From Pirellulales bacterium (GTDB lineage: Bacteria > Planctomycetota > Planctomycetia > Pirellulales > UBA1268): a stretch of DNA of 48,801 nucleotides. Below are positions 19,853 through 40,303 of this stretch, piece by piece. Numbering within the stretch: position 1 is the stretch's first letter; each line of letters begins with the position of its first letter. The stretch covers positions 1-48,801 of the forward strand of contig JBIKND010000003.1 of NCBI GenBank assembly GCA_044358905.1. The letters run 5' to 3'. The notes under the pieces were generated by a model. The model was given only the letters and a program-made list of their open reading frames with translations. It did no database searches and had not been told where the DNA came from. A program made the position numbers and the translations under genes.

Positions 19853-19874
19853 TAGCAGACTGTGGAACAAGTCT
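19853..19874 (+). repeat. IS/MITE-end-like inverted repeat (left)
   Basis: TAGCAGACTGTGGAACAAGTCT, 21/22 match to the reverse complement of 34838-34859. Confidence 0.65.
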
Positions 19875-19937
19875 GCCCGAGCAGGATGCGTGGGCCATCG
19901 ACCCAGGAGACCCTCGGCGTTTCCTGCGGTCGATCAA

Positions 19938-19968
19938 GTGGACAAAGGCCATGGAGGGCTTTGTCCAC
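19938..19968. terminator. Hairpin downstream of the DUF1559 operon
   Basis: GTGGACAAAG/CTTTGTCCAC 10-bp stem, just past the stop at 19975. Confidence 0.45.
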
Positions 19969-19974
19969 GGACAG

Positions 19975-20445
19975 CTAGTTCGCCAACTGAAACACGAAAT
20001 GGTTCGGGCCGCCGGCGCTCACTTCGGCCGTGAGTCCGGATGCTTCGAACGAGGCGTACCGCGTGGGAATCGCCGACGTGGCGGGAACCGCCGCCGGGGC
20101 CGCGGGGTCTTCAAGGAGTGGCATCGCGATCCGCACCCGGTGTGTGCCGGCCACGGCTCCGTCTCCCTCGCGGAAGGTCTTGAGTCCGAACCGCCCGTCT
20201 GGCCCCGTGAATCCCACAGCCTGGTGCGTGTGCACGACCTCAGGCCGGGCAGCGTCGGGGATCTCGATGGTGAAGTTCACGAGCGCTCCGACGACCGGCT
20301 GGCCACGATGCTCGACGGCTCCCGTGCACGAGAACGTCGGCGGACGGGCCCGGCTCCAGGCGTCTTCGTAGTGGGAGGAGCATCCGCAGGCGGCTACGGC
20401 GGCGAGGCAGGCGATCAGGCGAATGGTCGGAGGCATGGTGGTCAT
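19975..20445 (-). CDS. DUF1559-associated small lipoprotein (carboxypeptidase-regulatory-like)
   Basis: Lipobox-like AACGC; [41 protein letters not shown]; ATGA overlap with DUF1559 stop. Confidence 0.85.
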
Positions 20446-21614
20446 GGCTCGAAATACGCGGCATCGCCACCGGAGCGGGTGGCCATCGCGCCCCACACGC
20501 CATGCTGGCTGGGAGTCGAAGCCGAGGTGGGCAACGGCGCCCCGCCAAGGCCATAGGCGATGTTCTCGCTGATGAACCGCGTCGAGCCGTCGGCGAACAC
20601 GGCGTGCACGCCGCCGACATGGCGGCTGCGGGCGGTGTCGCCCCCCTTGGTGCAGGCAGGGCCATTGGGCGGCAGCCGAGCCACGAACGACGTGTTCAGC
20701 GACAGCCCGTCGATCCAATCCATGCCCAACACAAGGGACCGACTGCTGATGGTGAACACGGGTGAGTTGGTGCCTGGCTGGACGTACTGGCTGCCGTTGA
20801 ACGATGCCAGGCACGACGCCAGGTCCGATCCATGGTGGACGTTCGTCGCGTCCCACTTGTTGATGACGGGATCCGTCGGCTTGCCGGCCTGGCGGACGCA
20901 CTCCGAAAGCGCCAGCGTGTTGCTTAAACCGTCCTTGACGCTGCCGCCGGTGATCCGACTGTTGGAGCCGAACATGCCGCGCACGATGGGGGCCGCGACG
21001 ACGCGGGTCGCGTTGTCGTTCTGGTCGATGTAGGGGCCGGTGAACTGGCAGTCCTGGTCCTTCTGTTGGCCGACGAAGGGAAAGACGGCGCCGTAGTCGT
21101 ACCGAAAGTAGTTCGTGGGCACGACGTCGCCGGCGTTGAACACGTAGTTGAAATGCCGCGGTTCGCCGGCCGGCACGTCGGACGGGCACAGCAGGTAGGC
21201 CGGCGCCTGACGGAGTTCCGTGGGCACGTTGTCGATGCTGAAAGTGCCGTTGCCGATCCGGTCGTGGAGGGCCGTCTGGTCCATGAAGGGCAGCATCAGC
21301 ACATGGCCGCTCATGGCGCCGACGCCCCGGTAAGTGGATCCGTCGGGGAGTTTGTCGCCGGGGGCGGGCGTGCCGCCGGAAGTGGCGTAGTTCGACGACA
21401 GCCGGCCACCTTTGCTCGGCGGGAAGGCGGCGTTGGCGGCGTCGTAGCCTTGGATCGCGATCCCAATCTGCTTGAGATTGTTCATGCACTGCGCCCGGCG
21501 GCCCGCCTCGCGGACGGATTGCACCGCCGGCAGGAGCAGCCCCGCCAGCAGCGCGATGATCGCGATCACCACCAGCACCTCGACGAGCGTCATGCCGGAT
21601 CTGCAACGCTTCAT
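20442..21614 (-). CDS. DUF1559 prepilin-type protein
   Basis: [44 protein letters not shown]-x9-DG ([12 protein letters not shown]). Confidence 0.93.
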
Positions 21615-21672
21615 CGGCTCACCGTTTCTATCGTGCCCTCGGCGGGCGAGGTGACAGCCCCGGACCTCATGC

Positions 21673-21717
21673 ATTGTGCTTCAGTGGCGGCCCGGAACCA
21701 ACGGACGAAAGTACGGG
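21673..21717 (-). promoter_or_regulatory. Shared operator A plus putative promoter
   Basis: Minus strand: CCCGTACTTTCGTCCG, TTGGTT, 17 bp, CACAAT. Confidence 0.7.
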
Positions 21718-21735
21718 ATGCCACGTGAAAGCGAG

Positions 21736-21764
21736 CGAGGGCGGGCCTAGCGGGCCCGCCCTCG
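21736..21764 (-). terminator. Hairpin after the PEP-CTERM gene
   Basis: CGAGGGCGGGCC/GGCCCGCCCTCG perfect 12-bp stem. Confidence 0.55.
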
Positions 21765-21806
21765 TGCAGATCACGGGAGGATCATGTGTGGGTGCCGTCA
21801 GAGCAT

Positions 21807-23576
21807 TCAGGCCGCCCGAGAGGCACGCCGACGCCTCGCCACCGACCAGCCGGCCAGCGCGATGCCGCACGAGGCGAGCGCGAGTGTGCCCGGCTCGGGC
21901 ACCGCGGAGACGTACATGCCATAGTATGTCGAGTTCGAGCCGGCATCGTAGATGACCGCCGGTGTAGCGCCGGCAAGGCCGCCCGTCAGGCCCGAAGTGT
22001 TCGCGCCGATCTTGTTCGCCGAGATGAAACTGTTGAGGGAACTCTGCTGGTCACCCGCCCACTTGATGGCCCAGTAGATGCTGTCGTGACTTTCGGCCGT
22101 GCCGAGGTAGCTGAAGCCAGTCGGATTGTTTTGGAACGTGGCAAGGATGCCGTTGCCGTTGGCGAGAGTGTCGGCGATCGTGAGGGCCGCCGAGTTTGCA
22201 CGCGTCAGGATGAGGCCCGAGGACGTGTCGCTGACAAGAATGTTCAGCCGCCCAGAGTTGTTGACGTTGAAGGTCGCAGTCGAGCCCGACGTGAACATCG
22301 TGCGGTTCAGTTCCATGAGGCCCTCGACGCCGGTCGTCGTGGTATCGCCGATGTCGGTCTGCGCCGACGAGGTAACGCTCCCGCTGCCAAACTTGACGGT
22401 TCCCGTGGAGTCGCCACCGTTCCCCACGCGAAGCCATGTGGACACGGTGAGCCCCGTGCCCATCGAGCCGCCGCCCATATCGAGCGTGCCGTAGCCGCCG
22501 GTGCCGGCACTGTCACGGGTGCCAACATAGAGGTAGGGGATGGCCCCTTGCAGGATCATGTTGGTGCCGGTGACCGAGCCGGTGCCGCCGTCGTAGCCGA
22601 TGTAGGCCGCGGTGATGTTCCAGTTCATCGTCCAGCCGCTGCCGACCGCGAGGCTACCCGAGCCGGCACCGCGACCGATGTTGAACGATCCGTTGCCGCC
22701 CGAATGATCGATCAGGCCGCCATTGATTCCAGAGAGGTTTACCGTCGAGGTCTTGGTGGTGGTGTTCGATCCGGCGCCGATGTTCAGGGTGTTCGTGTAG
22801 GCGGTGAAATTGCCGCCGGTGCCGGCGGTAAATGAACTGCTGGCCGAGCCAGTCAAGGTCGCATAGCCCAGTGACATCTCGGCCCGCGCCCCCGATGTGC
22901 CGATGTTGAACGTCCAGTTATCGCCGAACGACATGGTCGAGCTCGCGACACCGGTGGTGTTGGCGTATCCGGCCCGCAGGCTGGCGAAGGTCAGCGAGCC
23001 GTTGTCGGAGTCGGCCATGTTCAGATTCGCGGCGGCGTTGAACGTCGATTCGGCGTATCCGACGGTGCTCAACCCGGTGAAGCCCAGCGTCGTCGTGAGC
23101 GAACTGGTGCCGATGAGCGTGCCCGCAGCCGCCGCTGTATTTGCGTAGCCGAGACGCAGCAGTTGGGAGCCGGCCTGCGGCGCCAGGAAGGTGCCGTTGG
23201 AGAGTTGCATCGCACCCGTTGCGTTGCTCCCGATTTCGATCTGCGAGAATGACCCGAAAGCCAGTGTGCCACTGTTGATGTTGATCGCGTGCGTGCCGGT
23301 GCTATTGGTCACGTACAGCGCCCAGAAGTTGTTGCTGTAGGCATTGGCCGTGCTCGGGCCGACGCCCGTATTGTCAAAGTAGCGATACACGCCTGGCGTG
23401 CTCGTCCAGTTGGACAGGTTTGACCAGAGGCCGTCACCACCACCGTTCGTCCAGGTCTGCGCGTGCGCGGCCGGCGTGATGACAACGCTCACTGCGAGCA
23501 AGACGGCGGCGGGCAGGCAAACGCGAGGGAAACGGGAGCCAGCATTGCGAAGCTTGGTGAAAACCGAGACGTTCAT
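21807..23576 (-). CDS. PEP-CTERM surface protein, G/S/T/N-rich beta repeats
   Basis: Signal peptide (AHA-QT), WTNGGGDGLWS, C-terminal VPEPGTLALA...TM...RRRR. Confidence 0.92.
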   Translation of the reverse strand: MNVSVFTKLRNAGSRFPRVCLPAAVLLAVSVVITPAAHAQTWTNGGGDGLWSNLSNWTSTPGVYRYFDNTGVGPSTANAYSNNFWALYVTNSTGTHAININSGTLAFGSFSQIEIGSNATGAMQLSNGTFLAPQAGSQLLRLGYANTAAAAGTLIGTSSLTTTLGFTGLSTVGYAESTFNAAANLNMADSDNGSLTFASLRAGYANTTGVASSTMSFGDNWTFNIGTSGARAEMSLGYATLTGSASSSFTAGTGGNFTAYTNTLNIGAGSNTTTKTSTVNLSGINGGLIDHSGGNGSFNIGRGAGSGSLAVGSGWTMNWNITAAYIGYDGGTGSVTGTNMILQGAIPYLYVGTRDSAGTGGYGTLDMGGGSMGTGLTVSTWLRVGNGGDSTGTVKFGSGSVTSSAQTDIGDTTTTGVEGLMELNRTMFTSGSTATFNVNNSGRLNILVSDTSSGLILTRANSAALTIADTLANGNGILATFQNNPTGFSYLGTAESHDSIYWAIKWAGDQQSSLNSFISANKIGANTSGLTGGLAGATPAVIYDAGSNSTYYGMYVSAVPEPGTLALASCGIALAGWSVARRRRASRAA

Positions 23577-23638
23577 GGAGATAGCCCCTTTTGCGGATTG
23601 CTATGGGCCGAGGCGAATCCCGCGTCCCACCGAGAGAC

Positions 23639-23683
23639 AGTATTTCAAGCCCGGGCGGGAGCCACCACGTACCTAGGTACGGG
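23639..23683 (-). promoter_or_regulatory. Shared operator B plus putative promoter
   Basis: Minus strand: CCCGTACCTAGGTACG (contains a perfect 14-bp palindrome), TGGTGG, 17 bp, AATACT. Confidence 0.65.
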
Positions 23684-23754
23684 GGCACATGAATCGGATT
23701 CTTGCGATAACGAAAGACCATGAACGTGGGTTTCGCTGCGGAATTTCCACGGTT

Positions 23755-24408
23755 TCAGTCCCCGCCCCGGCCCGAGGCCTTCAACAGCCCCAGATCGAAC
23801 CCCCGGGCCACGGCCCCCGCCCGGTCGTGGGCGTGGAGCTTTTCCAGGATCCCGGTCACGTGCCCCTTTACCGTCCGTTCGGTGATGTTCATCTGGTCAC
23901 CGATCTCGGCGTTCGTCAGCCCCTTGCGCATCAGGCTCAAGACCTCGAGTTCGCGGGGCGTGAGGCCGCAGGTTGGCGTCACGGGTTGGCGGCTGGAGAT
24001 CCCCTGCTGGATGCCGGTCTGGCCGCGGTGCACGGCGCGGACGGCCGACACCATCGTCGCGCGGTCTACGTTCTTCGACACGTAGCCGCAGGCACCCTCG
24101 CGCAGGGCACGGGCCGCATCCTCGGCCGCGTCCGACGACGTGAGCACGATCACGCGGGCCGTCGGCGTCTCATGTCGCAGCCGCCGCAGCGTCTCGAAAC
24201 CGTCGATTCCGGGCAGGTTGAGGTCGAGCAGGCAGACGTCGGGCCGGCAGCGGCGCACCACGTCGAGCCCCTCCTCGCCCGTGCTCGCCTGGCCCACCAC
24301 CAGGAAGTCGGACTCCATCTCCAGGAGGTTCGCCAGGCCCGCCCGCAGCAAGGGATGGTCGTCGATCAACAGGAGGCGGATCTTGCCGGCGGACGTCAAA
24401 ATCGCCAT
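23755..24408 (-). CDS. NarL/FixJ-family response regulator
   Basis: LIDDHPLLRAG, LLDLNLP, GYVSK; LuxR HTH LTPRELEVL...TNAEI...ITERTVKGH. Confidence 0.95.
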   Translation of the reverse strand: MAILTSAGKIRLLLIDDHPLLRAGLANLLEMESDFLVVGQASTGEEGLDVVRRCRPDVCLLDLNLPGIDGFETLRRLRHETPTARVIVLTSSDAAEDAARALREGACGYVSKNVDRATMVSAVRAVHRGQTGIQQGISSRQPVTPTCGLTPRELEVLSLMRKGLTNAEIGDQMNITERTVKGHVTGILEKLHAHDRAGAVARGFDLGLLKASGRGGD

Positions 24409-24435
24409 CGCGCACTCCCACAGTGAAGGCGATGC

Positions 24436-24480
24436 ATTGGACCGCCGTCCGCGCCGTCTGACAGCGTACCATCGTACGGG
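24436..24480 (-). promoter_or_regulatory. Shared operator C plus putative promoter (autoregulatory position)
   Basis: Minus strand: CCCGTACGATGGTACG, CTGTCA, 17 bp, TCCAAT; directly after the kinase stop. Confidence 0.6.
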
Positions 24481-26730
24481 TCAGGTCGTGGCCGATGGCG
24501 ATGCCGCGGCCCGCGTCGCGGCGACCGGCACGACCACGCGCACGCTCGTGCCGGCGCCCGGCGTTGACTCCAGAGCGAGGGTGCCCCCGAGCCGCTCCGC
24601 CCGCTCCCGCATGCCTTCGAGACCAAAGTGGCCCTGTCGCGGCCCGGGCTGGCTGCCGATCGTGAACCCCCGGCCGTCGTCGCGCACCGTCAATTCCACG
24701 CGGCCGTCGGCCGGCATGAAGGCGAGATCGACGTCGATGCGGCTGGCAGCGCCGTGCCGGAGCGCGTTGAGCATCGCCTCCTGGGCGATCAACAGCAGGT
24801 TGCCGGCGACAAAATCCGCCACCGCCGGCAGGGCCGCGCCGTGGCTACGGACGGTGATCGCGGTCTCGTGGCCGCCCCCGACCTGCTGGGCGAGGTCGGC
24901 GAGGGCCTCGGGGAGCGGTCGGTTCGACGGCGCGGCCGTCCGCAGGGCCCACACGGTGCCCCGCAGCTGCTGCACGGCATGGCCCACCATCTTCTCGGCG
25001 ACGGAGAGCTTCTCCTCGACCTTCCCCTGCGGCTGCGCGAGCGCCCCGCTGCAGACGTTCAATTGGTAGCCGATGCCCGTCACGGTCTGGAGCACCGTGT
25101 CGTGGAGGTTGGCCGCCAGCCGGCTCCGCTCACGGAGCGTGGCCTGGTATTCGACGGCCGCCTCGCGCCGGGTCTGGCGCTCGGCCGCGAGCTTCTCCGC
25201 CTGCCGGGCGACCTCGCGGCGAAGCAGCACCACCCAGCCCACGGCGGCGGCCAGGCCGAAGGCGAGCCCACCGAGGGCGATCGCCAGCCGGCGCGGCGTC
25301 CACCACGACGGGCGGCGGACGACCCGCAGGTCGTCCTGCGACCGCAGGATCACTTCCAGCGACTCGGTCTCCGGGTTGACGACGGACTCATAGAGCTCCG
25401 CCAGGCTCGTCATCCCGAGTTCCACCACGCCCGTCACCTCGAACTCGGTGTCCGGCTCGAGCGCGGTCAAGACGGCCGGATCGCCCGCCATGCCCTTGGC
25501 CAGCCGAGAGGTGAACGTCGTGCTGCCGGCAGTGAGCGTGAACAGCCAGTCGTCGCCGGATCGCTGCCGCTCGACGAGCGTCGCTGGAAACGTGACGAGC
25601 ACGCCCGAGTAGTTGCTCGGCTGCGAGATCTGCCCCAGGGCCGAGGCCGCTCGCAGGATCGTCCGGATCTCGTCGGGGGCGACGCGGGCGGCCGCGGGCG
25701 GCGGGCCGGAGGACGTGCGCTCGACGATGCCGTCCACGATGCCCGCGATCCGTCGGTCCATGTCGACGAAACCGGCCACCCGGACCCGATCCCCGATCGC
25801 GAGGCCGTCGGTCTGCATGACGGCCACACGCACCCCGGTGAGCCCTTCCTGGAGATAGATCGCCCGGCCGGGCACGATGCACGTGACGGTGCCGATCGTC
25901 TGGATCCGATGGCGGCTCGGGGGGGACGAGCGGTAGGTGCCCAGGGCATCGAGCGGCACCAGCGGCGACTCGAACGGCGAGAACGGGGCCGGCTTCACGA
26001 TTTCGATGTCGTCCGCCGCCGCGATGATGAACTGCGGGAGCAGGAACTGGCCGCGGCTGTTGCGGGCCGCGGCGGGGAGGACGACCGCCCGAATGCTCGC
26101 ATCGACGAGATGGTCGGGTCGCTCGGGCACGAGCCGCTTGTTGATGCCCAGCCGCAGCCGCTGGCCCACCATGTCGAGCATCAGCCGCCACTCCTCGCCG
26201 GCGTCCTCGCAGCCCTGGGCGATCACCTCCTCGTCGCGGCCGATCTCGACGCGCACGGCATTGTCCCCTCCGCGGAGCACCCTGTCGGCGTCGAACGGCA
26301 CGGGCTCCGGCAACGACGCCGTGCCGATCAGCGTCACGCCCGCCGGGTCGGCCTGGAGCCGCGGTGCGAAGCCGCCGCGGTCGACGACGCCCACGACCTC
26401 GAGGCGGCTGCCGAGGCCGATCGGTTGCCGCGCGCCATCCCGGCCGGCGACGAGCATCCGCCCTGCCTCGTCACGGTCCAGCCCGATGCCCACGACCCAC
26501 AACGCGTGGCGGCCATCCTGGATGACGGCGCCGAAGTCGCACAGCGTGACCGTGCCCTGGACGCGGACGCGGATGCCGCGTGCCAGATCCGCGGCCGGCA
26601 GGGCCAGCACGTCGGCGATCGAGAGCATCGACTCGTCCATCGGGACCGGACGGTCGTCCGGGGCGGCCGCGGGCAGACCACCGGCCCTGATCAGGAGCGC
26701 GACAGCGAGCAGGAACCGCGGGCCGGTCAT
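24481..26730 (-). CDS. Sensor histidine kinase (HisKA_3 type)
   Basis: Signal peptide, large extracytoplasmic region, PSWWTP plus TM, ERSRLAANLHDTVLQ, EAMLNALRH, DDGRGF, GLEGMRER. Confidence 0.92.
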   Translation of the reverse strand: MTGPRFLLAVALLIRAGGLPAAAPDDRPVPMDESMLSIADVLALPAADLARGIRVRVQGTVTLCDFGAVIQDGRHALWVVGIGLDRDEAGRMLVAGRDGARQPIGLGSRLEVVGVVDRGGFAPRLQADPAGVTLIGTASLPEPVPFDADRVLRGGDNAVRVEIGRDEEVIAQGCEDAGEEWRLMLDMVGQRLRLGINKRLVPERPDHLVDASIRAVVLPAAARNSRGQFLLPQFIIAAADDIEIVKPAPFSPFESPLVPLDALGTYRSSPPSRHRIQTIGTVTCIVPGRAIYLQEGLTGVRVAVMQTDGLAIGDRVRVAGFVDMDRRIAGIVDGIVERTSSGPPPAAARVAPDEIRTILRAASALGQISQPSNYSGVLVTFPATLVERQRSGDDWLFTLTAGSTTFTSRLAKGMAGDPAVLTALEPDTEFEVTGVVELGMTSLAELYESVVNPETESLEVILRSQDDLRVVRRPSWWTPRRLAIALGGLAFGLAAAVGWVVLLRREVARQAEKLAAERQTRREAAVEYQATLRERSRLAANLHDTVLQTVTGIGYQLNVCSGALAQPQGKVEEKLSVAEKMVGHAVQQLRGTVWALRTAAPSNRPLPEALADLAQQVGGGHETAITVRSHGAALPAVADFVAGNLLLIAQEAMLNALRHGAASRIDVDLAFMPADGRVELTVRDDGRGFTIGSQPGPRQGHFGLEGMRERAERLGGTLALESTPGAGTSVRVVVPVAATRAAASPSATT

Positions 26731-26809
26731 CGGCGGGATCCTCGTGCGGAAGCCGGGAATGCCCCCATCGTACTCCGGCGGCCGGCCGAGGCCCGGGGCC
26801 CATGCCGCC

Positions 26810-28090
26810 TCACCGGGCGGCGGCCCGCACGTTCAAGGTCGTGACGTCGCGGATCTGGTCGGCCCGCGACTGGATCGTGAGCACGTCGCCACGGCCGGCT
26901 TCCTGGAGCACGTTCTCCAGGCTCGAGTCGACGAGCGAGCCGCCGACGAGGACGGCGTGCTTCGACCGGGACATGACGTTCCGGACCACGATCCGCGACG
27001 TCTCGCCGGGAACGGCGTTGCCCCCGCCCCAGTCGGCGTCGCCGATTTTCACGGCAGCCCGGCAGACCACGTCGTCGGGCGCCGTGTCCACGAGGCCGTC
27101 GACGAGAATGGCGTGCATGCCCACGCCCGGGGCGTTGAGCAGGCGCACGATGTGATGGCCACCGCGGGAGTAGCCGCGGACGTTGCGGATGATCACGTCG
27201 CGGATGTCGTCCTGGTCGCCGCCGCGGTTCTTGGCGTCGGTGGCCATGTGGGTGGCCATCGCGCCGGCTGCATGATCGGCGAACGGGATCGCCGTCAGGG
27301 CGACGAGATCGTCGCCCACGTGGCCGGTGATGTTCTCGATCAGGATGTCGTGGCAGCCCATCCGCAGGTCGAGGCCGTCCTGGTTCACGATCGTCTGCTG
27401 CACGCCGTCGATCGTCTTCGAGCCGGTGGAGGCGAAGTCGACGTCGCGGATGGTGCCGTGGCTGCACCGCTCCAGGGAGATCGCCCAGCAGTGCGAGTCG
27501 CGGATGGTGAGGTTCTGGATCGAGAAGCCGTCGACGAAGGCGAGCAGGATGCCGTGATTCCGCCAGTCGCTCGTCTGGCTCTCGGCCGCCACGCCAGAGT
27601 CGGTGCCGTAGGAATGCTTCCCCACCGTCTTGTTGCCGTCGCCCGTGGCCCGGGGGCGGTCGGCGCCTTCCAAGACCGCGGTGCCGAGGCCGCGAATGTG
27701 CACGTTTTTGATCGGCTTGACGTCGGTGACGCCCAGGCCGCAGTTGGCCGAGCGGATCAGGTTGTCGCGGCAGCGGTCGGAAAGCTTGACGCGACAGTTG
27801 TCGAGCTCGAGCACCGTCCCCTCGCGGACGAGAATCGCGGAGTCGATGAGCCAAACGGCCTTGTCCTTGCCCTTGGCGTTGACCGGCGGGATCACCACGC
27901 GGCGGCCGGCCGCGGCTTCGATCGCCTTGTTGATTCGTTCCACGTCACTGCCCGCGAACTCGTCGGGCGTGATGCAGACGGTGGGCGGGTCGGCGGCGCG
28001 GGCGGCGGGCATGCCGACCACGAGGCTGGCGGCGAGGCACGCGAGCCAGGCGGGAACGCGGGTCGCGCGGCGACGAGTTGATCCGAGCAT
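26810..28090 (-). CDS. Secreted pectin-lyase-fold (GH28-like) beta-helix protein
   Basis: Signal peptide; TIRDSHCWAISL, NQDGLD, GDDLVAL (resembling GH28 NTDG/DD). Confidence 0.75.
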   Translation of the reverse strand: MLGSTRRRATRVPAWLACLAASLVVGMPAARAADPPTVCITPDEFAGSDVERINKAIEAAAGRRVVIPPVNAKGKDKAVWLIDSAILVREGTVLELDNCRVKLSDRCRDNLIRSANCGLGVTDVKPIKNVHIRGLGTAVLEGADRPRATGDGNKTVGKHSYGTDSGVAAESQTSDWRNHGILLAFVDGFSIQNLTIRDSHCWAISLERCSHGTIRDVDFASTGSKTIDGVQQTIVNQDGLDLRMGCHDILIENITGHVGDDLVALTAIPFADHAAGAMATHMATDAKNRGGDQDDIRDVIIRNVRGYSRGGHHIVRLLNAPGVGMHAILVDGLVDTAPDDVVCRAAVKIGDADWGGGNAVPGETSRIVVRNVMSRSKHAVLVGGSLVDSSLENVLQEAGRGDVLTIQSRADQIRDVTTLNVRAAAR

Positions 28091-28129
28091 GACGGTTTCC
28101 TGGGAAGGGGCGGAGAACGCTCCGGTGCT

Positions 28130-32377: not shown

Positions 32378-32382
32378 GCGGG

Positions 32383-34725
32383 TCACTCCTCGAACCGCAG
32401 CGGGGCGAAGTCGGCGGTGTTGGAGTTGAAGCCCCCGTACTTGGCGTTCATTTTCGAATGCTCGCGGTGGCCATCGGCCTTGCCCGTGCCGCTGCGGCAG
32501 CGGGTGAATTGGCCGAGCCAGGAAACTCCCGTCGCCGGCGGCTTGGCGCCGGGCAGCGCGGCCAGCGGCACGAACACCTCCATCGACCAGAAGTCGGGGC
32601 CGAGCGCCTTGGCGAACTTCAGCCCTTCGCAGGTCCAGCCGGTGTCGGCCTCCCAGGCATCGTAGAGCCCGCCGCCGGCCGTGAGGATCAGCTGGGCCGC
32701 CTTGCCGCTGCCGGTGCCGCTTGGCTCGAGGAACACTTCCAGGCAGTCCTGTCCCCAGAGGCCGCCGTCGTCGCGGCTGGCGTTGTCCATCAGGAGCTTG
32801 TCGGGGTTCGGCTCGGAGCAGCGGAAGCCGAACGTCACGCCGTCGCCGGTCCAGACGGCCTTCACCCACGTCGGCTTGCCCGGCTCGGCGTCTTCGCCGT
32901 CTTTCACGTGCCGGCGAAACGCCGTCTCCGCGGCCGTGGCCCACTGGGGCTCGTCGAGCTTGCCGTCGACCGTGGGATTCTCGGCGACCTTCTTCGCCAC
33001 CAGCGGCCGCACTCCCTTGCCCTCGATCACCACCTCGTACTCGGCGAAGAAGTCGGCGAACGGCTTCTCGTAGTAGTCGAGCCGTTGCTTCAGCACGGGA
33101 TCGTCGCCGATCGCCCGGCGGGCCTCGGCGAGCAACTCCCGCATCCGGTCGAGCACCGGCTTGGGAAAGCTCTCGGTGTAGATGTGCTTGGCGGAAAAGA
33201 CGGCCCCGGGCCAGCGGCTCTTCTCCCAGGAGTCGCACTGCAGGCGCACGAGCTCCCGCATCGGCTTCGCGGCGGGCCCGAACATCCGCACGGCGAACTC
33301 GTCGAGCATCGCGTCGACGTCGTAATCGGGATCCCACATGCACTTCAGCCAGGCGACCAGCGAGAGGTGGCTGCGGGGGAAGTGGTCGTTGGTGCCGTTG
33401 ACCGTCGTGCCCACGATCCGGCCGCGATTTTTCTGGTAGTAGTCGCGGACCACGTGCGGATAGAGATAGCAGGCCTTGGTCTTCTCCTCGGGCCAGCAGT
33501 TGTAGTCCCAGGTGTGGACGCGGCCCCCCACCAGCTCCCGCCAGGTGTCGATGTTGTCCTGGAACTCCTTCCAGGTGGCGGGTTCCTTGTAGTTGGCCAG
33601 GCCCGGCATCCCGCAGAGTTGCACGCAGACGTTGTCGGGAAACTCGATGCCCTCCGGCGCGAGGGTGTAGTTGACGTACGGCAGGTAGAAGACGCCCTTG
33701 CCCGGCCAGCGGTCCTTGATCGCCCGGGCCAGCTTGGCGACGAAGGTGCCCACGAGCTGGGAGGCCTCGCCGTAGCCGCCCCGCGCGGGCTGCATCAGCT
33801 TTTGGCAATCGTCGCAGTAGCAGGCGATGCCCGCGTCCCAAGGGGAGACGGTGACGAAGTCGCCCGAGATGCCGAGGTCGCCGGGGGCGAGCCGCTCCCC
33901 CTTGTCGAAGACGCGGGAGAGCACCTCCATGTGGAGCGCGAGCGTGGCCGGGTTGCCGTAGCAGAGCATCTGCGGGTCGCGCGAGCCGTCCTTCCGCTTC
34001 TGCATCACCTCCGGATGCGCCTGGCCGTAGAGCGCGCCCCAGTGGGAGGGCGCATGGACCACGATCGACGTCGGCCAGGAGTCGCCGTCGCGCAGCATCG
34101 CGAAGATCGTGATCAGCTCGCCGTTCGGGCCGCCGTCGCCGAAGATCGGGCCCATGCCGCGGCGGCGGAAGGCGGGCGCGTCTTCGATCCACACCGGCGG
34201 CACGGCGAGCGACGCGGCCTTGGGCACGCAGCGGCCGCCCGACTGCGGTGGCCAGTAGTAGCGGGCGTCGATGAACCGCTCGAGGAACTCGGCGATGCCC
34301 CAGGCCGTGCCGGGCGAGTTGAGCCGCTCGTCGTCGTGGCCCACGATGAACACGCGGTTGGGCGTGGTCTTGATCGCGAAGCCCTCGACCGGCATCGCCT
34401 TGCCGTCGAGGCCCGCCGTGGCCGCCTCCGGGCAGGCCCCGATCACGATCGCCGGGCCGTCCACGAGCTTCCCGCGCGACTCCGGGAGCTTTGTGCCCGT
34501 CGCCGCCTCGATGCAGGCCTGGAGTTCCCGGACCGCCACGTCGATCTCGCGGATCGCCGGCACCCCCATCAGGCAGATCGTGGCCCTGGGGACGCCATTC
34601 TCGACGATGGGAATCGGGGCGTGGGCCGGCGGCGCATGCACTGTGACGGGCTGAAGATCGGGCGCCGCTCCGGCGGCGATCGCCATCGGCAGGAGACCGA
34701 ACAGTGGCAGGAGTGATCGGAGCAT
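32383..34725 (-). CDS. DUF4838 protein with C-terminal CBM9-like domain
   Basis: Signal peptide; GTAWGIAEFLE, LCYGNP, CYCDDC, MWDPD; PTVDGKLDEPQW, DCLEVFL, WSMEVFVP. Confidence 0.82.
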   Translation of the reverse strand: MLRSLLPLFGLLPMAIAAGAAPDLQPVTVHAPPAHAPIPIVENGVPRATICLMGVPAIREIDVAVRELQACIEAATGTKLPESRGKLVDGPAIVIGACPEAATAGLDGKAMPVEGFAIKTTPNRVFIVGHDDERLNSPGTAWGIAEFLERFIDARYYWPPQSGGRCVPKAASLAVPPVWIEDAPAFRRRGMGPIFGDGGPNGELITIFAMLRDGDSWPTSIVVHAPSHWGALYGQAHPEVMQKRKDGSRDPQMLCYGNPATLALHMEVLSRVFDKGERLAPGDLGISGDFVTVSPWDAGIACYCDDCQKLMQPARGGYGEASQLVGTFVAKLARAIKDRWPGKGVFYLPYVNYTLAPEGIEFPDNVCVQLCGMPGLANYKEPATWKEFQDNIDTWRELVGGRVHTWDYNCWPEEKTKACYLYPHVVRDYYQKNRGRIVGTTVNGTNDHFPRSHLSLVAWLKCMWDPDYDVDAMLDEFAVRMFGPAAKPMRELVRLQCDSWEKSRWPGAVFSAKHIYTESFPKPVLDRMRELLAEARRAIGDDPVLKQRLDYYEKPFADFFAEYEVVIEGKGVRPLVAKKVAENPTVDGKLDEPQWATAAETAFRRHVKDGEDAEPGKPTWVKAVWTGDGVTFGFRCSEPNPDKLLMDNASRDDGGLWGQDCLEVFLEPSGTGSGKAAQLILTAGGGLYDAWEADTGWTCEGLKFAKALGPDFWSMEVFVPLAALPGAKPPATGVSWLGQFTRCRSGTGKADGHREHSKMNAKYGGFNSNTADFAPLRFEE

Positions 34726-34771
34726 GGCGGTGGATCAGGCGGGCGTCCGACGTCTCGGCCGACGATGTCGC

Positions 34772-34816
34772 ATTGTCACGTCGTGATTCCCGGCGTGCAG
34801 CGGACGAAAGTACGGG
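34772..34816 (-). promoter_or_regulatory. Shared operator D plus putative promoter
   Basis: Minus strand: CCCGTACTTTCGTCCG (identical to site A), CTGCAC, 17 bp, GACAAT. Confidence 0.7.
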
Positions 34817-34837
34817 GTCGCGACTCGGGCGTCCGGA

Positions 34838-34859
34838 AGACGTGTTCCACAGTCTGCTA
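34838..34859 (-). repeat. IS/MITE-end-like inverted repeat (right)
   Basis: Reverse complement TAGCAGACTGTGGAACACGTCT; its TAG is the DUF1501 stop codon. Confidence 0.65.
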
Positions 34860-36299
34860 CGCCAGGAGTTCGGGGATCACCCGGGCCTTCGTGACCTCGT
34901 GGTCGGTGAGGCTATCGAGCCTGCCATCGTGCTCGACCGTGAGTTGGGTGTGGTCGAGGCCCAGCAGGTGGAGCAGCGTGGCGTGGAGGTCGTGGAACCG
35001 CACGATCCCGTCGATCGCCTGATTGCCGAACTCATCGGTCGCCCCGTGCACGTGGCCGCGCCTGAAGCCGCCGCCGGCCATCCAGATCGAGAAGCCCCAG
35101 CGGCTGTGATCGCGACCATCCGCCCCCTCCGAGAGGAAGGTGCGTCCGAACTCGCCCATCCAGAGCACGATCGTCGAGTCGAGCAGACCACGGTCCTTGA
35201 GGTCGGCGACCAGCGCCGCCGACGCCTGGTCCACCATGCCGGACACCCGCTTCGTCTCCGCGGCGTTCTTGGCATGCGTGTCCCAGGGCTGGCCGGCATG
35301 GTACACGCTGACGTACCGGACGCCGCGCTCGATCAGGCGTCGCGCCATCAGCACCCGCCGGCCGTAGCTCGCCGTCGCGGGGTTGCCGAGTCCGTACCGG
35401 GCCCGCGTGGCGGCCGTCTCCTGCGCGAGGTCCGTCGCGTCCGGCACGCTGGTCTGCATGCGGGCAGCCATCTCGAAGTTCGCGATCCGGGCCGCCAGGT
35501 CGGTGTCGTCGGGAAAGCGGTCGAGGTGCCGCCGGTTCCATGCGGCGAGGTGTCGGAGTTGGTTCGCGCGGGCCGCGGCCGGCAGGTCGGCCGGGGTCTG
35601 CAGGTTGAGCACCGCCGGGCCCTGCGCCCGGAAGACCGTGCCCTGGTAGCGGGCCGGCAGCCAGCCGTTGGTCCAGTTGTTCGCTCCCCAGACCGGCGGA
35701 CCGTCGGGGTCGGGCAGCACGATGTAGGCGGGCAGATTGTCGTTGAGCGAGCCGAGCCCGTACTCGATCCACGATCCCACGGTCGGTCGCCCGAGGACGA
35801 TCGAGCTGCCGCCTCCCCAGAGCCGCAGCGCCGCTTCGTGGCACGGGGTGTCGGCCTGCATGGAGCGGACGAGCGTGATTTCGTCGGCGATGGTGGCGAT
35901 GTGGGGAAGACAATCGGAGATCTCGATTCCCGACGCGCCGTGCTTGCGGAACGTGAACGGCGAGCCGAGGATCGCGCCCGGCCGATTCATGATCGCATCG
36001 ACCTTCGATGATCCGGTGTACTTCTGACCGTGCAGGCGATTGAGCTCCGGCTTCGGATCGAAGAGATCCATCTGGCTCGGGCCGCCGTTCTGGAACAGGC
36101 AGATCACGCGGGTCGCCCGGGCATGAGTCGGCCGTGTCGCCGCCGCGGTGTTCGCCGCCGTGGCGCGTTCCAATCGCAGGAGGTCGGCCGCGGCCAGCAG
36201 ACCGGTGAGGCCCATGGCCGACCGCCCGACGAACGCACGGCGATGCAGGCGGTCGCGGGCTGCGGCGTCGATGGTCGCATCAGGGCTGCAGTGCTGCAT
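34857..36299 (-). CDS. DUF1501 (Tat-exported, sulfatase-like) protein
   Basis: RRAF Tat motif, GGPSQMDLFDPKP, ARRLIERGVR, WDTH, GEFGRT, GRDH, HDLHATLLHLLG. Confidence 0.93.
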   Translation of the reverse strand: MQHCSPDATIDAAARDRLHRRAFVGRSAMGLTGLLAAADLLRLERATAANTAAATRPTHARATRVICLFQNGGPSQMDLFDPKPELNRLHGQKYTGSSKVDAIMNRPGAILGSPFTFRKHGASGIEISDCLPHIATIADEITLVRSMQADTPCHEAALRLWGGGSSIVLGRPTVGSWIEYGLGSLNDNLPAYIVLPDPDGPPVWGANNWTNGWLPARYQGTVFRAQGPAVLNLQTPADLPAAARANQLRHLAAWNRRHLDRFPDDTDLAARIANFEMAARMQTSVPDATDLAQETAATRARYGLGNPATASYGRRVLMARRLIERGVRYVSVYHAGQPWDTHAKNAAETKRVSGMVDQASAALVADLKDRGLLDSTIVLWMGEFGRTFLSEGADGRDHSRWGFSIWMAGGGFRRGHVHGATDEFGNQAIDGIVRFHDLHATLLHLLGLDHTQLTVEHDGRLDSLTDHEVTKARVIPELLA

Positions 36300-36309
36300 G
36301 ACGGCGCTC

Positions 36310-39300
36310 CTAGTCGATGTACAGGAAGGCATTCGTGGCGAAGATGATCTGGCACAAGTCGATGACCGCGCGACGCGGGGCGTCGGTCGCCGGGGCATGG
36401 ATCGCACGCTGCTCGCCCAAGAACGCAACCGCCGCGGCCCGATCGGCCGGATCCGGCTCGCGGCCGATGCACAAGACGAACGCCAGCCGGACGCGGGCGT
36501 CGTCGTCGTCCGCCGTGGCGATCAGCCGGTCGGCCAACGCGGCCGCGCGGCTCCGGGAGAATCCGGAGTTGAGCTGGGCGAGCGACTGCAGCGCGACGGT
36601 CGAGCGCGGCCGATCGGCGCACGTGGCCGTGATGCCCGGCAGGTCGAAGACCTGAAGGAAGGTCGGCAGCACACTGCGACGGCGTTGCACGTACAGCGTC
36701 CGCCGCTGTAGGCCGGGGGTCGTTCGGGGCTCCACTTCGCCCGCAGCGCCATGGCCGTCCATGCCGTCGAGGGTCAGTGGAGGGCCGCCGACCGTGGGGT
36801 TGAGATCGCCGCCCACCGCCAGCATCGCGTCGCGGATCGACTCGGCGTCGAGACGCTGCAGCGGAAACCGCCACAGGAGACGGTTCGCAGGATCGGCCGC
36901 AAGCCCCGCAGCGAAGGGTGCGCTCGATTGCCGGAAGGCCGTCGAACCGAGCACGAGCCGCAGCATGTGCTTCAGGCTCCATCCCGACCGCACCAGCTCC
37001 GCCGAGAGAAACTCGAGCAACTGCGGATGCGAGGGCTCCATGCCGCTGAGCCCGAGGTTCTCCGGCGTTGTCGACAGGCCCGCGCCGAAGCAGTGCAGCC
37101 AGATCCAGTTCGCCCGCACGCGGGCCACCAATGCCATCGGCCGTGATCCCGGCCGCAGCATCCACTCGGCCAACGCCAGCCGCCGGCCCGTGGACGCGTC
37201 GTCCGCGGGCGGCACGACCCGGAAGGGGTTGTCGGGGTCACTGAGCACCGCCAGACCCGCGGGCGTCACTTCCTCGCCGGGATCGTCATACAGCCCGCGC
37301 CGCAACAGAAAGACCCGCGGCGGCCGCGACGAGCCGTCGCTCACTGCGGCCACCTCGACACCGGGCGGCGTGGCCAGTTGTCGCTCCAGTGGTTCCACGA
37401 GGTCGCGATGCTCCCGGGCCTGCTCCGCGAACCGCTGGTCGCCGGCGACGGCCTCGGGGTCGTCGTTCCGCGCCAAATCGCCCGCGGTCACGATCACGTT
37501 CTCGACGACGAACGAGCCGCCGCCGAACGCGAAGGCGAATCCGCCGTCCGGAAGGTCGGCGGCCGCGAGCGCGAGCGGCGGGCCGTCCGGCACGTCGTCG
37601 ACGAGGTGTACGAGCTGGTACGCGCCCCCGCCGGCGTTGGTCACCCGGACTCCGTACCGGCGGCCCGGGACGAGCCGCTTCGCACCCAGTGGCACCGCTG
37701 GCCCTGCTCCCGGAAAGCCGGCCCACGCCTGCGTCGGCCGCCGCGGGCCGCCCGCGACGAACAGGCTGCCCGGTGCACCGGCCCGTCGCCCGGCGAAGTT
37801 GCCGGCCCCGATGAAGTAGCCGACCTGCTCGGCGGGTCCGCTCCTGCCACCGCTGCCGGGCAGGTCGATCGCGTCATCGACGAGGCTGAACGAGACCTGG
37901 ATCGACCGCCCCACCACATCGGGTGTCCAATCGAACCGCTGCCGCGTGCTCAGCCAACTCGAACCGCTCATGCCCGAGGCGATCCGTAGCCGCGTGCCGC
38001 GGCGATCGGCGCAGTGCCGGTTGGGCACGGCGTCGGCGAGCAGTACGGCCAGGTCGGGCGGGTCGTCGCCAGGCGCGGCCTCGCTCCACAGGTCGGCCAC
38101 CGGCCGCGTGCCATCGTCGACGAACAGCATCTCTTCCCGGTAGACCGGCGGCGGCTGGTACCGCTCCACGAGCACGTCTGCCACCGTGAGCCGCCGGCCG
38201 GGCACGCGGCGGAGGGCGAACGGCCCGGGCTTCAGGTCGGCATGGTCGAGCACGAGCGGTTCGCCGTCGATGGCGTAGTCGGCGAGGTGCTCGAGGCGGC
38301 ACTTCCCCGCGCCGAGGTTGGTGATCCGCACGCCGTACGTGCCCCCCGCGCGGTAGGCCGCGCGGCCGAGGCTGCCGATCGACTCGAAGCGGTTGTCCGG
38401 GGCAGCGGCCTGCCGCAGTCGTGAAATCTTCGGCCCGCCCGTCGGCCTGCCCTCGACGTAGATGTTGCCGGCCTCGTCTGACCCCGTGGGACCGCCCCGC
38501 ACGCCCCGCGCCGCGAGCATGTAGCCGAATCCGTCACTGGCCGCTGCGTCGCCCGTGGCCCGATCGGCGACGAGGCGAAACGTCACCTGCACCGCGCCGC
38601 CGGCCTCCGGATGGATCCACTCGACCGGCGGCGTCGCCAGCCACGACTCCTCGTCGGCCTCGACGAGCAGGCCCGCGGCCACATGCCGTGCCGGCGGTGC
38701 CCCTGCCGGCTCGGCGGTCCACGACGCCCCGGCACCCGTGCCGTCGTCGCGAAACATCACCGCGCCGCGGCGCCGATGCCGTTCCACCCAGTCACGATGC
38801 TCCGCCCGCGCCGCCGCCAGCCGGGACTCGATCACGGTCCTGTTCGCCTCCCAGGCGACCCGCTCGTCGGCCGTGGCTGCACGGAGCACGCGATCCCGTG
38901 GCTTGACCCACCGCTCCGGATTGAATGCCGGGTAGAGGATCGCCTGCGCCTGGTAGTACTCGCGCTGCGTCAGCGGCTCGAACTTGTGGTCGTGGCAGCG
39001 TGCGCACTTGATCGTGAGCCCGAGGAGCGAGGTGTAGACGATCTGCTCCGCCGCCTCGAGCGCCGCGTAGCGGTCGATGCGTTGCGCCTCGGGGCTCGGC
39101 GCGCTGTCGTCGGTGCCGTCGGGCCCGTTGCGCAGGAAATGGCTGGCGACGAGCAATTCGCGTTGCTCGGGCGTGACCGTGGAGCCCGGTGTCACTCCCG
39201 CCAGTTCGTCGCCGGCGAGTTGCTCGCGGATGAAGCGGTCGAACGGTTTGTCGGCATTGATCGAGGCCACGACGTAGTCGCGGTACCGCCAGGCGTGGGC

Positions 39301-40095
39301 CCGGTCGCTCTCCTTGCCGAAGTAGCCGTTCGTGTCGGCATAGCCGCCGGCGTCGAGCCAGTGCTTGCCCCAGTGCTCGCCATAGTGGGGCGACGCAAGG
39401 AACCGGTCGACGAGCCGCTCATAGGCGTCCGGCGCCGGATCGGCCACGAAGGCCGCCACCTCTTCCGGCGTGGGCGGTAGGCCGGTGATCACGAAGGCGA
39501 CCCGTCGGGCAAGGGTGGCCCGGTCGGTGTCGGCGGCGAGTGTCAGCCCCCGCGGCGCGAGCGCCGCCTGGAGGTGGGCGTCGATGGCGGTCCGCACTGT
39601 GCCGGTCGGTCGGCCGTCTTCCGCCGCCGGGACGCGCGGCACCGACGGCATCTGCAGCGACGCGAACGCCCAGTGGCCGCCCCCTGCCGCGGCCGCGGCC
39701 GCGAGGCCCGGTGTGCCGGCCGCGATCCACCCGCGAATCGCCTCCTGCTCCGTGGCGTCGAGCGGCCGGTCGGGAGGCATCTCGCCGTCATGAACCCGCT
39801 GCCACAACAGGCTCGCCTCGGCCGTGTCGGCAAGGACGGACCCGCTGTCGCCGCCGCTGAGGAGCGTGGCGGCCCGGCTGAGGTCGAGCCCTCCCTCCGG
39901 CTCGTTGGGACCGTGGCAGCGCACGCACCGCGCCTTCAGCAGGGGCTGGATCGTCTCCTTGAAGATGGCCGCCGAGTCGGATGGGGCGGGAGTGTCAGGA
40001 CCCGCGGGAGGCGACTCGTCAGCGCGGAGTCCGGCGGCCAGCGTGCCGACGCCCAGCAGCAGGAGCCCGCGCCACGTTGTCGATGCCCAACTCAC
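36310..40095 (-). CDS. Planctomycete cytochrome c / DUF1549 / DUF1553 protein
   Basis: CVRCH, HWAF, GLPPTP, HYGEHWGKHWLD, CARCHDHKFEP, PSHPQLL, RLDAESIRD. Start GTG 40095 with GAGGAG RBS. Confidence 0.92.
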   Translation of the reverse strand: MSWASTTWRGLLLLGVGTLAAGLRADESPPAGPDTPAPSDSAAIFKETIQPLLKARCVRCHGPNEPEGGLDLSRAATLLSGGDSGSVLADTAEASLLWQRVHDGEMPPDRPLDATEQEAIRGWIAAGTPGLAAAAAAGGGHWAFASLQMPSVPRVPAAEDGRPTGTVRTAIDAHLQAALAPRGLTLAADTDRATLARRVAFVITGLPPTPEEVAAFVADPAPDAYERLVDRFLASPHYGEHWGKHWLDAGGYADTNGYFGKESDRAHAWRYRDYVVASINADKPFDRFIREQLAGDELAGVTPGSTVTPEQRELLVASHFLRNGPDGTDDSAPSPEAQRIDRYAALEAAEQIVYTSLLGLTIKCARCHDHKFEPLTQREYYQAQAILYPAFNPERWVKPRDRVLRAATADERVAWEANRTVIESRLAAARAEHRDWVERHRRRGAVMFRDDGTGAGASWTAEPAGAPPARHVAAGLLVEADEESWLATPPVEWIHPEAGGAVQVTFRLVADRATGDAAASDGFGYMLAARGVRGGPTGSDEAGNIYVEGRPTGGPKISRLRQAAAPDNRFESIGSLGRAAYRAGGTYGVRITNLGAGKCRLEHLADYAIDGEPLVLDHADLKPGPFALRRVPGRRLTVADVLVERYQPPPVYREEMLFVDDGTRPVADLWSEAAPGDDPPDLAVLLADAVPNRHCADRRGTRLRIASGMSGSSWLSTRQRFDWTPDVVGRSIQVSFSLVDDAIDLPGSGGRSGPAEQVGYFIGAGNFAGRRAGAPGSLFVAGGPRRPTQAWAGFPGAGPAVPLGAKRLVPGRRYGVRVTNAGGGAYQLVHLVDDVPDGPPLALAAADLPDGGFAFAFGGGSFVVENVIVTAGDLARNDDPEAVAGDQRFAEQAREHRDLVEPLERQLATPPGVEVAAVSDGSSRPPRVFLLRRGLYDDPGEEVTPAGLAVLSDPDNPFRVVPPADDASTGRRLALAEWMLRPGSRPMALVARVRANWIWLHCFGAGLSTTPENLGLSGMEPSHPQLLEFLSAELVRSGWSLKHMLRLVLGSTAFRQSSAPFAAGLAADPANRLLWRFPLQRLDAESIRDAMLAVGGDLNPTVGGPPLTLDGMDGHGAAGEVEPRTTPGLQRRTLYVQRRRSVLPTFLQVFDLPGITATCADRPRSTVALQSLAQLNSGFSRSRAAALADRLIATADDDDARVRLAFVLCIGREPDPADRAAAVAFLGEQRAIHAPATDAPRRAVIDLCQIIFATNAFLYID

Positions 40096-40184
40096 GGCCG
40101 CGATGCTCCTCGGTTGCCCAGGTCGCACCCGCGCGAGCCGCCGGGCCGGGATCGGCCGCCGGCCCGGGTCGGTGGACCAAGTCA

Positions 40185-40229
40185 ACCCTAGGCCGGTTCA
40201 GGGCGCGCCGCCACGGACGAAAGGACGGG
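40185..40229 (-). promoter_or_regulatory. Shared operator E plus putative promoter
   Basis: Minus strand: CCCGTCCTTTCGTCCG, TGGCGG, 17 bp, TAGGGT. Confidence 0.65.
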
Positions 40230-40303
40230 GCAGCGGCGGCTGGAACCGCAATTCCTGCGGTTTTACGGCCTGGATGGCCAGCGGCGGCGTCTGCGGGGCG
40301 GAG

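Follow-up and report, generated by a model that had tools for sequence, protein, structure and literature searches.

A candidate operator of a NarL-family two-component system and its predicted glycan-degradation regulon in a lake-water member of the Pirellulales

The stretch of DNA analysed here, hereafter the window, comprises 48,801 nucleotides of contig JBIKND010000003.1 from the Pirellulales bacterium assembly GCA_044358905.1. It is contig C103 of this lake-water planctomycete assembly (G000), which amounts to 3,771,685 b in 298 contigs, with a G+C content of 70% and a reported completeness of 92%. A block of minus-strand genes in the window encodes a NarL/FixJ-family response regulator, a sensor histidine kinase, proteins with glycoside hydrolase (GH)-type domains and members of several planctomycete protein families, and five of these genes are preceded by copies of one 16-bp inverted repeat (Table 1). 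The 16-mer is proposed to be the operator of the adjacent regulator, through which this protein would control its own gene and activate a regulon for glycan degradation, a reading to which we assign a probability of roughly 70%. A Pfam scan covering 16 window frames agrees with the names that an earlier note on this DNA had given to the five downstream genes, namely DUF1559 with N_methyl, PEP-CTERM, REC with GerE, DUF4838, and PSCyt1/DUF1549/DUF1553.

Table 1. Candidate operator sites, promoter hexamers, genes and a leader hairpin of the proposed regulon
Feature	Position	Strand	Evidence and context
Candidate operator site 1, CCCGTACTTTCGTCCG	21702..21717	-	Exact match; upstream of DUF1559 gene
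Candidate operator site 2, CCCGTACCTAGGTACG, perfect 14-bp palindrome	23668..23683	-	Exact match; upstream of PEP-CTERM gene
Candidate operator site 3, CCCGTACGATGGTACG	24465..24480	-	Exact match; upstream of regulator gene, putative autoregulatory site
Candidate operator site 4, CCCGTACTTTCGTCCG	34801..34816	-	Exact match; upstream of first DUF4838 gene
Candidate operator site 5, CCCGTCCTTTCGTCCG	40214..40229	-	Exact match; upstream of PSCyt/DUF1549/DUF1553 gene
Candidate operator site 6, CCCGTACGATCGTACC, then 23 nt, then TATACT	G000 C122:13954-13969 (L036), outside window		Matrix scan
-10-like hexamer CACAAT	21673..21678	-	23 nt past site 1
-10-like hexamer AATACT	23639..23644	-	23 nt past site 2
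-10-like hexamer TCCAAT	24436..24441	-	23 nt past site 3
-10-like hexamer GACAAT	34772..34777	-	23 nt past site 4
-10-like hexamer TAGGGT	40185..40190	-	23 nt past site 5
PSCyt1 + DUF1549 (PSCyt2) + DUF1553 (PSD1) protein	36310..40095	-	Pfam E 3e-12, 6e-69, 4.6e-68; site 5 unit
DUF1501 protein	34857..36428	-	Pfam E 4.3e-136; follows PSCyt gene in one transcription unit (site 5)
DUF4838 protein, GH163/GH185-type domain	32383..34725	-	Pfam E 1.6e-27; first gene of site 4 unit
GH20b + DUF4838 + PATR-repeat protein	28130..~32300	-	Pfam E 8.7e-06, 4e-54, 1.5e-07; site 4 unit
GH28-like (pectin-lyase-fold) protein	26810..28090	-	Glyco_hydro_28 E 2.5e-06, 27.2 bits vs cut-off 22.9; site 4 unit
Sensor histidine kinase	24481..26730	-	HisKA_3 E 1.1e-13 + HATPase_c; last gene of site 4 unit
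NarL/FixJ-family response regulator (REC + GerE)	23755..24408	-	Pfam E 4.1e-30, 1.7e-17; downstream of site 3
PEP-CTERM protein, 589 aa	21807..23576	-	Pfam E 9.9e-05; downstream of site 2
DUF1559 / prepilin-type N-methylation protein	20442..21614	-	Pfam; downstream of site 1
Hairpin, perfect 9-bp stem, 9-nt loop (CCGGGCCGG...CCGGCCCGG)	40141..40167	-	Sequence + ViennaRNA fold

The 16-mers that the earlier note had placed at 21702, 23668, 24465, 34801 and 40214 are all present on the minus strand, and they constitute the only exact matches in the window to the pattern CCCGTMCNNNNGTMCG (CCCGTMC-N4-GTMCG), for which dinucleotide shuffles give an expectation of 0.12 matches and none of 100 shuffles reaches five. 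Across the whole 3.77-Mb assembly the pattern has six exact matches, five of which fall within a single 18.5-kb stretch of the window; the sixth, at C209:5482, lies within a coding frame and lacks a -10-like hexamer. Two classes of site can be distinguished. The regulator gene is flanked by two true palindromes, site 2 (CGTACCTAGGTACG, 14/14) and site 3 (CGTACGATGGTACG), and sites 1, 4 and 5 read CCCGT[A/C]CTTTCGTCCG, in which the right half-site is weaker. The full symmetric form of the putative operator is CCCGTAC-N4-GTACGGG. Every intergenic gap of the block longer than ~70 bp contains exactly one site, site 3 directly adjoins the TGA stop of the kinase gene, and the sequences flanking the five sites bear no relation to one another. 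The constituents of the motif are themselves uncommon in this genome: GTAC occurs 4239 times against 10421 expected from base composition, a 2.5-fold under-representation, and against 6737 from a second-order estimate, and CTAG, the spacer of site 2, has just 504 copies in 3.77 Mb. When one mismatch is allowed, the assembly yields 78 further matches, three of them on C103, where one is site 2 read in reverse and two are inside coding frames. The one-mismatch match at 26647 was rejected, because it falls within the coding sequence of the kinase and lacks a -10-like hexamer.

The promoter layout that had been claimed for the sites, a site abutting a poor -35 hexamer that is followed by 17 bp and a -10-like hexamer, is found as described at all five. 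The -35-like hexamers adjoining sites 1 to 5 (TTGGTT, TGGTGG, CTGTCA, CTGCAC and TGGCGG) match TTGACA at 2-4 of six positions, the weakness expected of a class II activator-dependent promoter. When the five sequences are aligned at the motif, agreement with TATAAT averages 3.8/6 at an offset of 23 and is no higher than 2.2 at the other 69 offsets (0-69), and four of the five hexamers at offset 23 combine A at position 2 with T at position 6. The dyad centre is located 30 nt ahead of the first -10-like base at every window site, such that a 14-bp dyad would span -49 to -36, with its centre at -42.5, given an assumed transcription start ~7 nt past the hexamer. A neutral consensus scan of 20400-40390 returned no sigma-70 promoter, which fits dependence on an activator.

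The whole assembly was scanned with a weight matrix built from 15 site instances, and 12 hits reach the cut-off of 15.35 bits: the five window sites, a sixth site on contig C122, two reverse-strand readings of palindromes and four others that show no -10-like hexamer at 22-24 nt. Eight of the 12 thus belong to six sites, each 23 nt from a -10-like hexamer, and five of these six promoter-type sites have the A2 and T6 bases, the exception being the regulator's own TCCAAT. The sixth site precedes genes for a PhyH-family dioxygenase and a mannonate dehydratase (UxuA; 202.5 bits, above the NCBIfam subfamily cut-off of 191), and is kept in contig C47 of a related genome, G015, as CCCGTACTATCGTACC, again followed by 23 nt and TATACT. 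The genome-wide occurrence of the motif without promoter geometry that would speak against a regulon was therefore not seen, as 12 matrix hits in 3.77 Mb include six sites with the geometry. Enrichment of the motif before the target genes and its rarity elsewhere in the genome, where one exact pattern hit and four matrix hits without promoter geometry account for the remainder, are features of an autoregulated regulon. The matrix match at C255:29955-29970 on the minus strand (CCGGTACTAACGGACG, 19.6 bits) occupies an A+T-richer intergenic stretch near the contig end, with GCCAAT at ~32 nt downstream rather than 23, and may represent a weak or differently spaced site.

Orthologues of the regulator were sought in 68 genomes of the genus and in a draw of 401 genomes of the order. 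Paralogues are numerous, also within G000, and are at most 55% identical; only three genomes gave matches above this level, namely G015 (90% across residues 4-100, truncated by the end of a contig), G083 (67%) and G327 (66%), the last of which belongs to another genus of the family. In all four genomes with an orthologue (G000, G015, G083 and G327), the regulator gene is preceded by the motif, 23 nt and either TCCAAT or CACAAT. The orthologous block of G015 is split over three contigs, with the PSCyt-DUF1501 gene pair conserved, and the motif is identical there before the regulator (L021 357-372), DUF4838 (L023 2995-3010) and PSCyt (L022 9332-9347) genes. Ungapped comparison of four promoters (regulator, DUF4838, PSCyt and PhyH-UxuA) between G000 and G015 gives 63/64 identical positions in the motif, 19/24 in the -10 hexamer and 58/92 in the spacer, with 71/160 in the 40 nt upstream and 57/124 in the 31 nt downstream. 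Individual promoters repeat this picture, as the upstream flank of site 4 is identical at just 8 of 40 positions, the regulator promoter keeps all six bases of TCCAAT with 12/23 in its spacer, and the flank of site 5 has diverged around an identical motif, with TAGGGT likewise unchanged.

The more distant loci retain the arrangement with altered sequence. The kinase-regulator spacers of G083 and G327 contain CCCGTACGTCCGTACGGG or CCCGTACGAATGGACG, then 23 nt and CACAAT, and their PSCyt1/DUF1549/DUF1553 genes are headed by CCCGTACGAAAGTACC, 24 nt and TACTAT or TATAAT. A PATR-repeat gene of G083 has a double site, in which a distal perfect palindrome is followed 36 bp downstream by a proximal GGGGTACTTTCGGACG, itself 23 nt from TACTGT, and this double arrangement recurs upstream of a gene in G327, there with 23 nt to TATTGT. 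The palindromes of G083 include perfect 7+4+7 forms of 18 bp, and such dyad symmetry fits a dimeric helix-turn-helix protein. Taken together, the putative operator stands ahead of the regulator's own gene and is conserved in the orthologous loci, as would be anticipated of an autoregulated regulon. The periphery of the locus is variable: in G083 the regulator gene and the PATR promoter are separated by an AAA_14/DUF4143 ATPase gene (L024 2718-4058), in the position that the PEP-CTERM gene occupies in G000. A further match in G083, on its contig C269 (CCCGTACTTTCGGACG), has no -10-like hexamer and overlaps a frame on the other strand. In G327, 41 of 71 matches to CGTACNNNNGKMC are an identical 13-mer, CGTACGACAGGCC, spread over many contigs, which is probably part of a dispersed repeat.

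Genomes and loci with other regulators provide a set of controls. In a genus-wide scan with the pattern, two hits on one contig occur only in G000 and G083. Seven of the hits were inspected individually, and no remaining hit shares a contig with another. The exact matches elsewhere in the genus include CCCGTCCCTTCGTCCG in three genomes and CCCGTACGAGCGTACG in G019. The seven, all single hits in genomes lacking the orthologue, were rejected as chance matches, with no A2 and T6 -10-like hexamer at the offset and five of the seven inside long open frames. Among 80 metagenome loci with related kinases (27-50% identical; 720,761 b), the motif occurs with its geometry only in L063 and L065, the regulators of which are 67-68% identical to that of the window. 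Six loci of a sister clade (L082, L086, L049, L047, L052 and L058) bear instead a different palindrome, ATTGGCCGATCGGCCAAT or variants thereof, directly after the kinase stop, and in L082 and L086 this is followed by 20 nt and TATAGA. This suggests that the autoregulatory operators are clade-specific elements occupying the same promoter position. The recognition helix likewise reads RTAKAHV in the sister clade versus RTVKGHV in the clade of the window regulator, and the apparent joint change of operator and helix is best called anecdotal, since one paralogue shares almost the entire helix and yet is without such a motif. A comparison of the recognition helix with those of G000 paralogues was set aside as not discriminating by itself.

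The Pfam Response_reg domain of the regulator covers residues 13-124, with the DD pair, the aspartate of LLDL, LTSS and the lysine of VSK visible in the alignment, and its GerE domain covers residues 149-200. The protein matches NarL (1a04) over its full length, and the latter is also its closest solved relative (E 8.8e-38), alongside VraR, DesR and DevR. None of the 25 NCBIfam equivalog families listed reaches its cut-off, the best being NarL at 165.3 bits against 250. With an intact receiver domain, a GerE domain and a HisKA_3 partner kinase, it is a NarL/FixJ (LuxR-type) response regulator. The kinase is composed of a signal peptide or first membrane helix, a periplasmic part of ~450 amino acids, a second membrane helix and a HisKA_3/HATPase_c core. 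Its periplasmic part (residues ~25-480) has no Pfam family, and an AlphaFold2 model built from 44 sequences (mean predicted local distance difference test score 80.3, mostly >85-90 over residues ~30-440) renders it all-beta. Foldseek matches to the whole model concern mostly the DesK-type core (best 5iuk_D, E 8.1e-12), and the sole hint for the periplasmic part is the seventh-ranked match, to 5z7d, which has tandem OB folds (template modelling scores of 0.14/0.22). A protein atlas returned only unnamed clusters for this domain, with a best score of 0.94, and neither it nor Foldseek produced a ligand candidate for the sensor part. Some 59 public homologues of the periplasmic part are available, one of them labelled Planctomycetota by its source and a few with a tRNA_anti (OB-fold) Pfam match. 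The domain represents an unnamed family of sensor domains in planctomycete kinases.

These observations can be assembled into a mechanism. The kinase would sense a signal through its periplasmic domain and phosphorylate the neighbouring regulator, a dimer of which would then bind the dyad that ends just before the poor -35 box and, from near -42.5, recruit RNA polymerase in the manner of a class II activator. Six promoters would respond: that of the regulator; of PSCyt/DUF1549/DUF1553 with DUF1501; of the DUF4838 unit, consisting of the DUF4838, GH20b-DUF4838-PATR, GH28-like and kinase genes; of PEP-CTERM; of DUF1559; and of the C122 PhyH and mannonate dehydratase genes. As the kinase gene is situated within the site 4 unit, the circuit would include a positive feedback loop. 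To the extent that sequence analysis allows, the interpretation offered in the earlier note is supported, and the C122 promoter extends it. The dyad symmetry, the position at a poor -35 box, the conserved autoregulatory site and the co-occurrence with one regulator clade jointly point to binding and activation by this regulator. From the gene content we infer that the regulon serves to break down a glycan in which uronic acid may be present, because GH163/185-like and GH28-like enzymes, a mannonate dehydratase and surface or secreted proteins are brought together. A search of sequencing runs for this DNA listed 24 DNA datasets from lake-water metagenomes and no RNA dataset.

Several points weigh against this interpretation or narrow its base. 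Activation is itself what we infer, and contact with the -35 region would also be compatible with repression. The -10 hexamers of the window are weak, matching TATAAT at 3-4 of six positions, and the spacing is 24 rather than 23 in the PSCyt promoters of G083 and G327 and in the DUF4838 promoter of G015, the one shifted case in that genome, with GATACT at 24 nt. Comparative support amounts to about two lineages rather than four, as G083 and G327 are alike at the locus, and the order-level search scored just seven candidates per genome, so that orthologues may be missed. Sites 1 and 2, before the DUF1559 and PEP-CTERM genes, have no orthologous counterpart for comparison; the PEP-CTERM query found no match in G015, G083 or G327, and site 2 is without a footprint. 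A paralogue on contig C111 of G015 has the near-identical helix TERTVKAHVT and no motif nearby, which indicates that the helix sequence alone does not explain specificity. Further sites in G000 may be unassembled, because the assembly is 92% complete.

Of the competing explanations, the one that fares best accepts that the same regulator binds the dyad and has it repress, with the dimer blocking RNA polymerase at -35 and the signal relieving or imposing the repression. Repression is within the repertoire of the NarL family alongside activation, the site extends to -36, where it meets the -35 hexamer, and the second site 36 bp upstream at the PATR promoters of G083 and G327 could serve looping or cooperative repression. 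A repressed promoter must, however, be strong alone, whereas the -35 boxes are poor at all six promoters and a consensus scan of the block finds no self-sufficient promoter; moreover, class II activators classically occupy positions centred near -42.5, and sites for repressors are more commonly located over the -10 hexamer or the start. Repression is accordingly considered unlikely.

It is also quite improbable that the 16-mer, as a real cis-element, is bound by some other factor, the candidates being a transcription factor encoded elsewhere and the HTH_17 protein whose gene (18585-20018) follows that for DUF1559. G083 (8 kb) and G015 are represented by short contigs, such that other co-inherited regulators are conceivable, but among DNA-binding genes the response regulator alone accompanies the motif in each of the four genomes, its own promoter is the most conserved site position, and the motif is missing at loci whose regulators are of other clades. 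The HTH_17 protein, for its part, gave no tblastn match on the G083 or G327 contigs. The DUF1559 gene is separated by ~420 nt from this downstream minus-strand gene, which encodes 477 amino acids and is not preceded by an operator site.

The fixed distance to a downstream hexamer, the single orientation relative to the gene and the presence in three sites of CGTC, a common -10 core of extracytoplasmic function (ECF) sigma factors, would also be compatible with an upstream promoter element of an ECF-type sigma factor. This explanation is very hard to sustain, since sigma factors need no dyad and the element is one, forming perfect palindromes of 18 bp in G083; the hexamers that lie 23 nt downstream conform to the sigma-70 type (xAxxxT), and none of the four genomes has a sigma factor gene linked to the locus. 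Finally, chance matches, or copies of a dispersed repeat resembling repetitive extragenic palindromic elements with no gene-specific role, might be suspected of a pattern that was defined after the sites were seen and in a GC-rich genome, and are scarcely credible given just six sites in 3.77 Mb, each before a gene at the same spacing to a -10-like hexamer, with unrelated flanks, an under-represented GTAC core and conservation as an island between species; the assembly count, the matrix scan and the G000-G015 footprints contradict them.

Certain features of the genes under the candidate operator merit description. The first start-like codons (ATG or TTG) of the longest DUF1559 and PSCyt frames fall within the -10 hexamers (21674 and 40185), and the real starts therefore lie downstream: an ATG at 21614 is the corrected start for DUF1559, and a GTG at 40095, ahead of the signal peptide, is the probable one for PSCyt. 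Automatic annotation would probably over-extend both genes. The presumed PSCyt/DUF1553 leader of ~85 nt contains the tabulated hairpin, the first arm of which is conserved in G015, and this leader is better conserved there than other leaders. The longest DUF1501 frame overlaps the end of the PSCyt gene, and comparison of the DUF1501 protein with PDB sequences found nothing at E up to 0.01. The start of the GH20b-DUF4838-PATR gene is approximate, as the frame remains open further upstream, and the GH28-like protein is 88% identical in G015. The DUF1559 protein has an NCBIfam H-X9-DG-CTERM domain and a weak GspG-like match. Families GH163 and GH185 have DUF4838 as their catalytic domain (PMC10570127), and the block therefore contains three hydrolase-like genes. 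The adjacent pair of SusC-like TonB-dependent transporter and SusD-like genes that defines a polysaccharide utilisation locus in the Bacteroidota sense is absent from the 16 window frames scanned with Pfam.

Comparison with known systems places the pair on familiar ground. Like NarL and NarP of Escherichia coli, the window system unites REC and GerE domains with a HisKA_3 kinase encoded next door. The regulator is not an orthologue of NarL, however, given its subthreshold NCBIfam score, its proposed targets are unrelated to nitrate respiration, and the sensor module of NarX/NarQ contrasts with the 450-residue all-beta periplasmic domain of the window kinase. NarL binds inverted repeats as a dimer and acts from near -40; its heptamer, TACYYMT in a 7-2-7 arrangement, differs from the window operator. 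DosR/DevR of Mycobacterium tuberculosis (3c3w), a NarL-family protein matching the window regulator at E 4.8e-28, similarly combines autoregulation with a compact regulon. The DosR box, GGGAC-N4-GTCCC, has 5-bp half-sites about a 4-bp A/T-rich centre, a 5-4-5 layout like CGTAC-N4-GTACG and close to GTCCG, which forms the right half in three of the window sites, although the half-site sequence and regulon content differ and DosS/DosT are cytoplasmic haem sensors. The DesK core of the DesK-DesR system of Bacillus subtilis is the best structural match of the window kinase, and DesR (4ldz) is near the regulator (E 3.3e-28), yet DesK senses the membrane through its transmembrane helices and controls one gene, in contrast to the large periplasmic domain and six promoters proposed here. 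A functional analogy may be drawn with the hybrid two-component systems of polysaccharide utilisation in Bacteroidota, which likewise place a periplasmic sensor inside a glycoside hydrolase cluster that it would turn on. They differ in that the kinase and regulator of the window are separate proteins, with an output of the LuxR rather than the AraC type, and the window partners belong to the planctomycete families PSCyt/DUF1553, DUF1501, DUF1559 and PEP-CTERM, unlike those of Bacteroidota loci.

An autoregulated NarL-family activator is a textbook mechanism and the system is of an ordinary kind; what is new is the operator sequence and the content of the regulon. To our knowledge, regulatory sites are almost uncharted in Planctomycetota. 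No comparable regulon was found in the accessible portions of the literature on planctomycete response-regulator binding motifs and regulons, and a full-text search for DUF1553 together with DUF1501 found no paper. The analysis suggests a layout for sigma-70-type promoters in a freshwater lineage that is uncultured, and it offers a hypothesis that is both precise and cheap to test, in which one regulator and one dyad of 16-18 bp account for six promoters. Under this hypothesis, PSCyt/DUF1553, DUF1501, DUF1559 and PEP-CTERM proteins would be tied to glycoside hydrolases and an enzyme of the uronate pathway under one periplasmic signal. Whether the regulon amounts to a planctomycete counterpart of a polysaccharide utilisation locus is a more tentative matter, and on balance doubtful; this would have GH163/GH185-like and GH28-like hydrolases co-induced with PSCyt-DUF1549-DUF1553/DUF1501 proteins, a pseudopilin-like DUF1559 protein, a PEP-CTERM protein and the mannonate dehydratase of hexuronate catabolism. 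If true, the very large planctomycete families DUF1553/DUF1549, DUF1501 and DUF1559 would take part in capturing and processing glycans, and this small regulon of six promoters would provide a tractable entry to the function of these DUF families.

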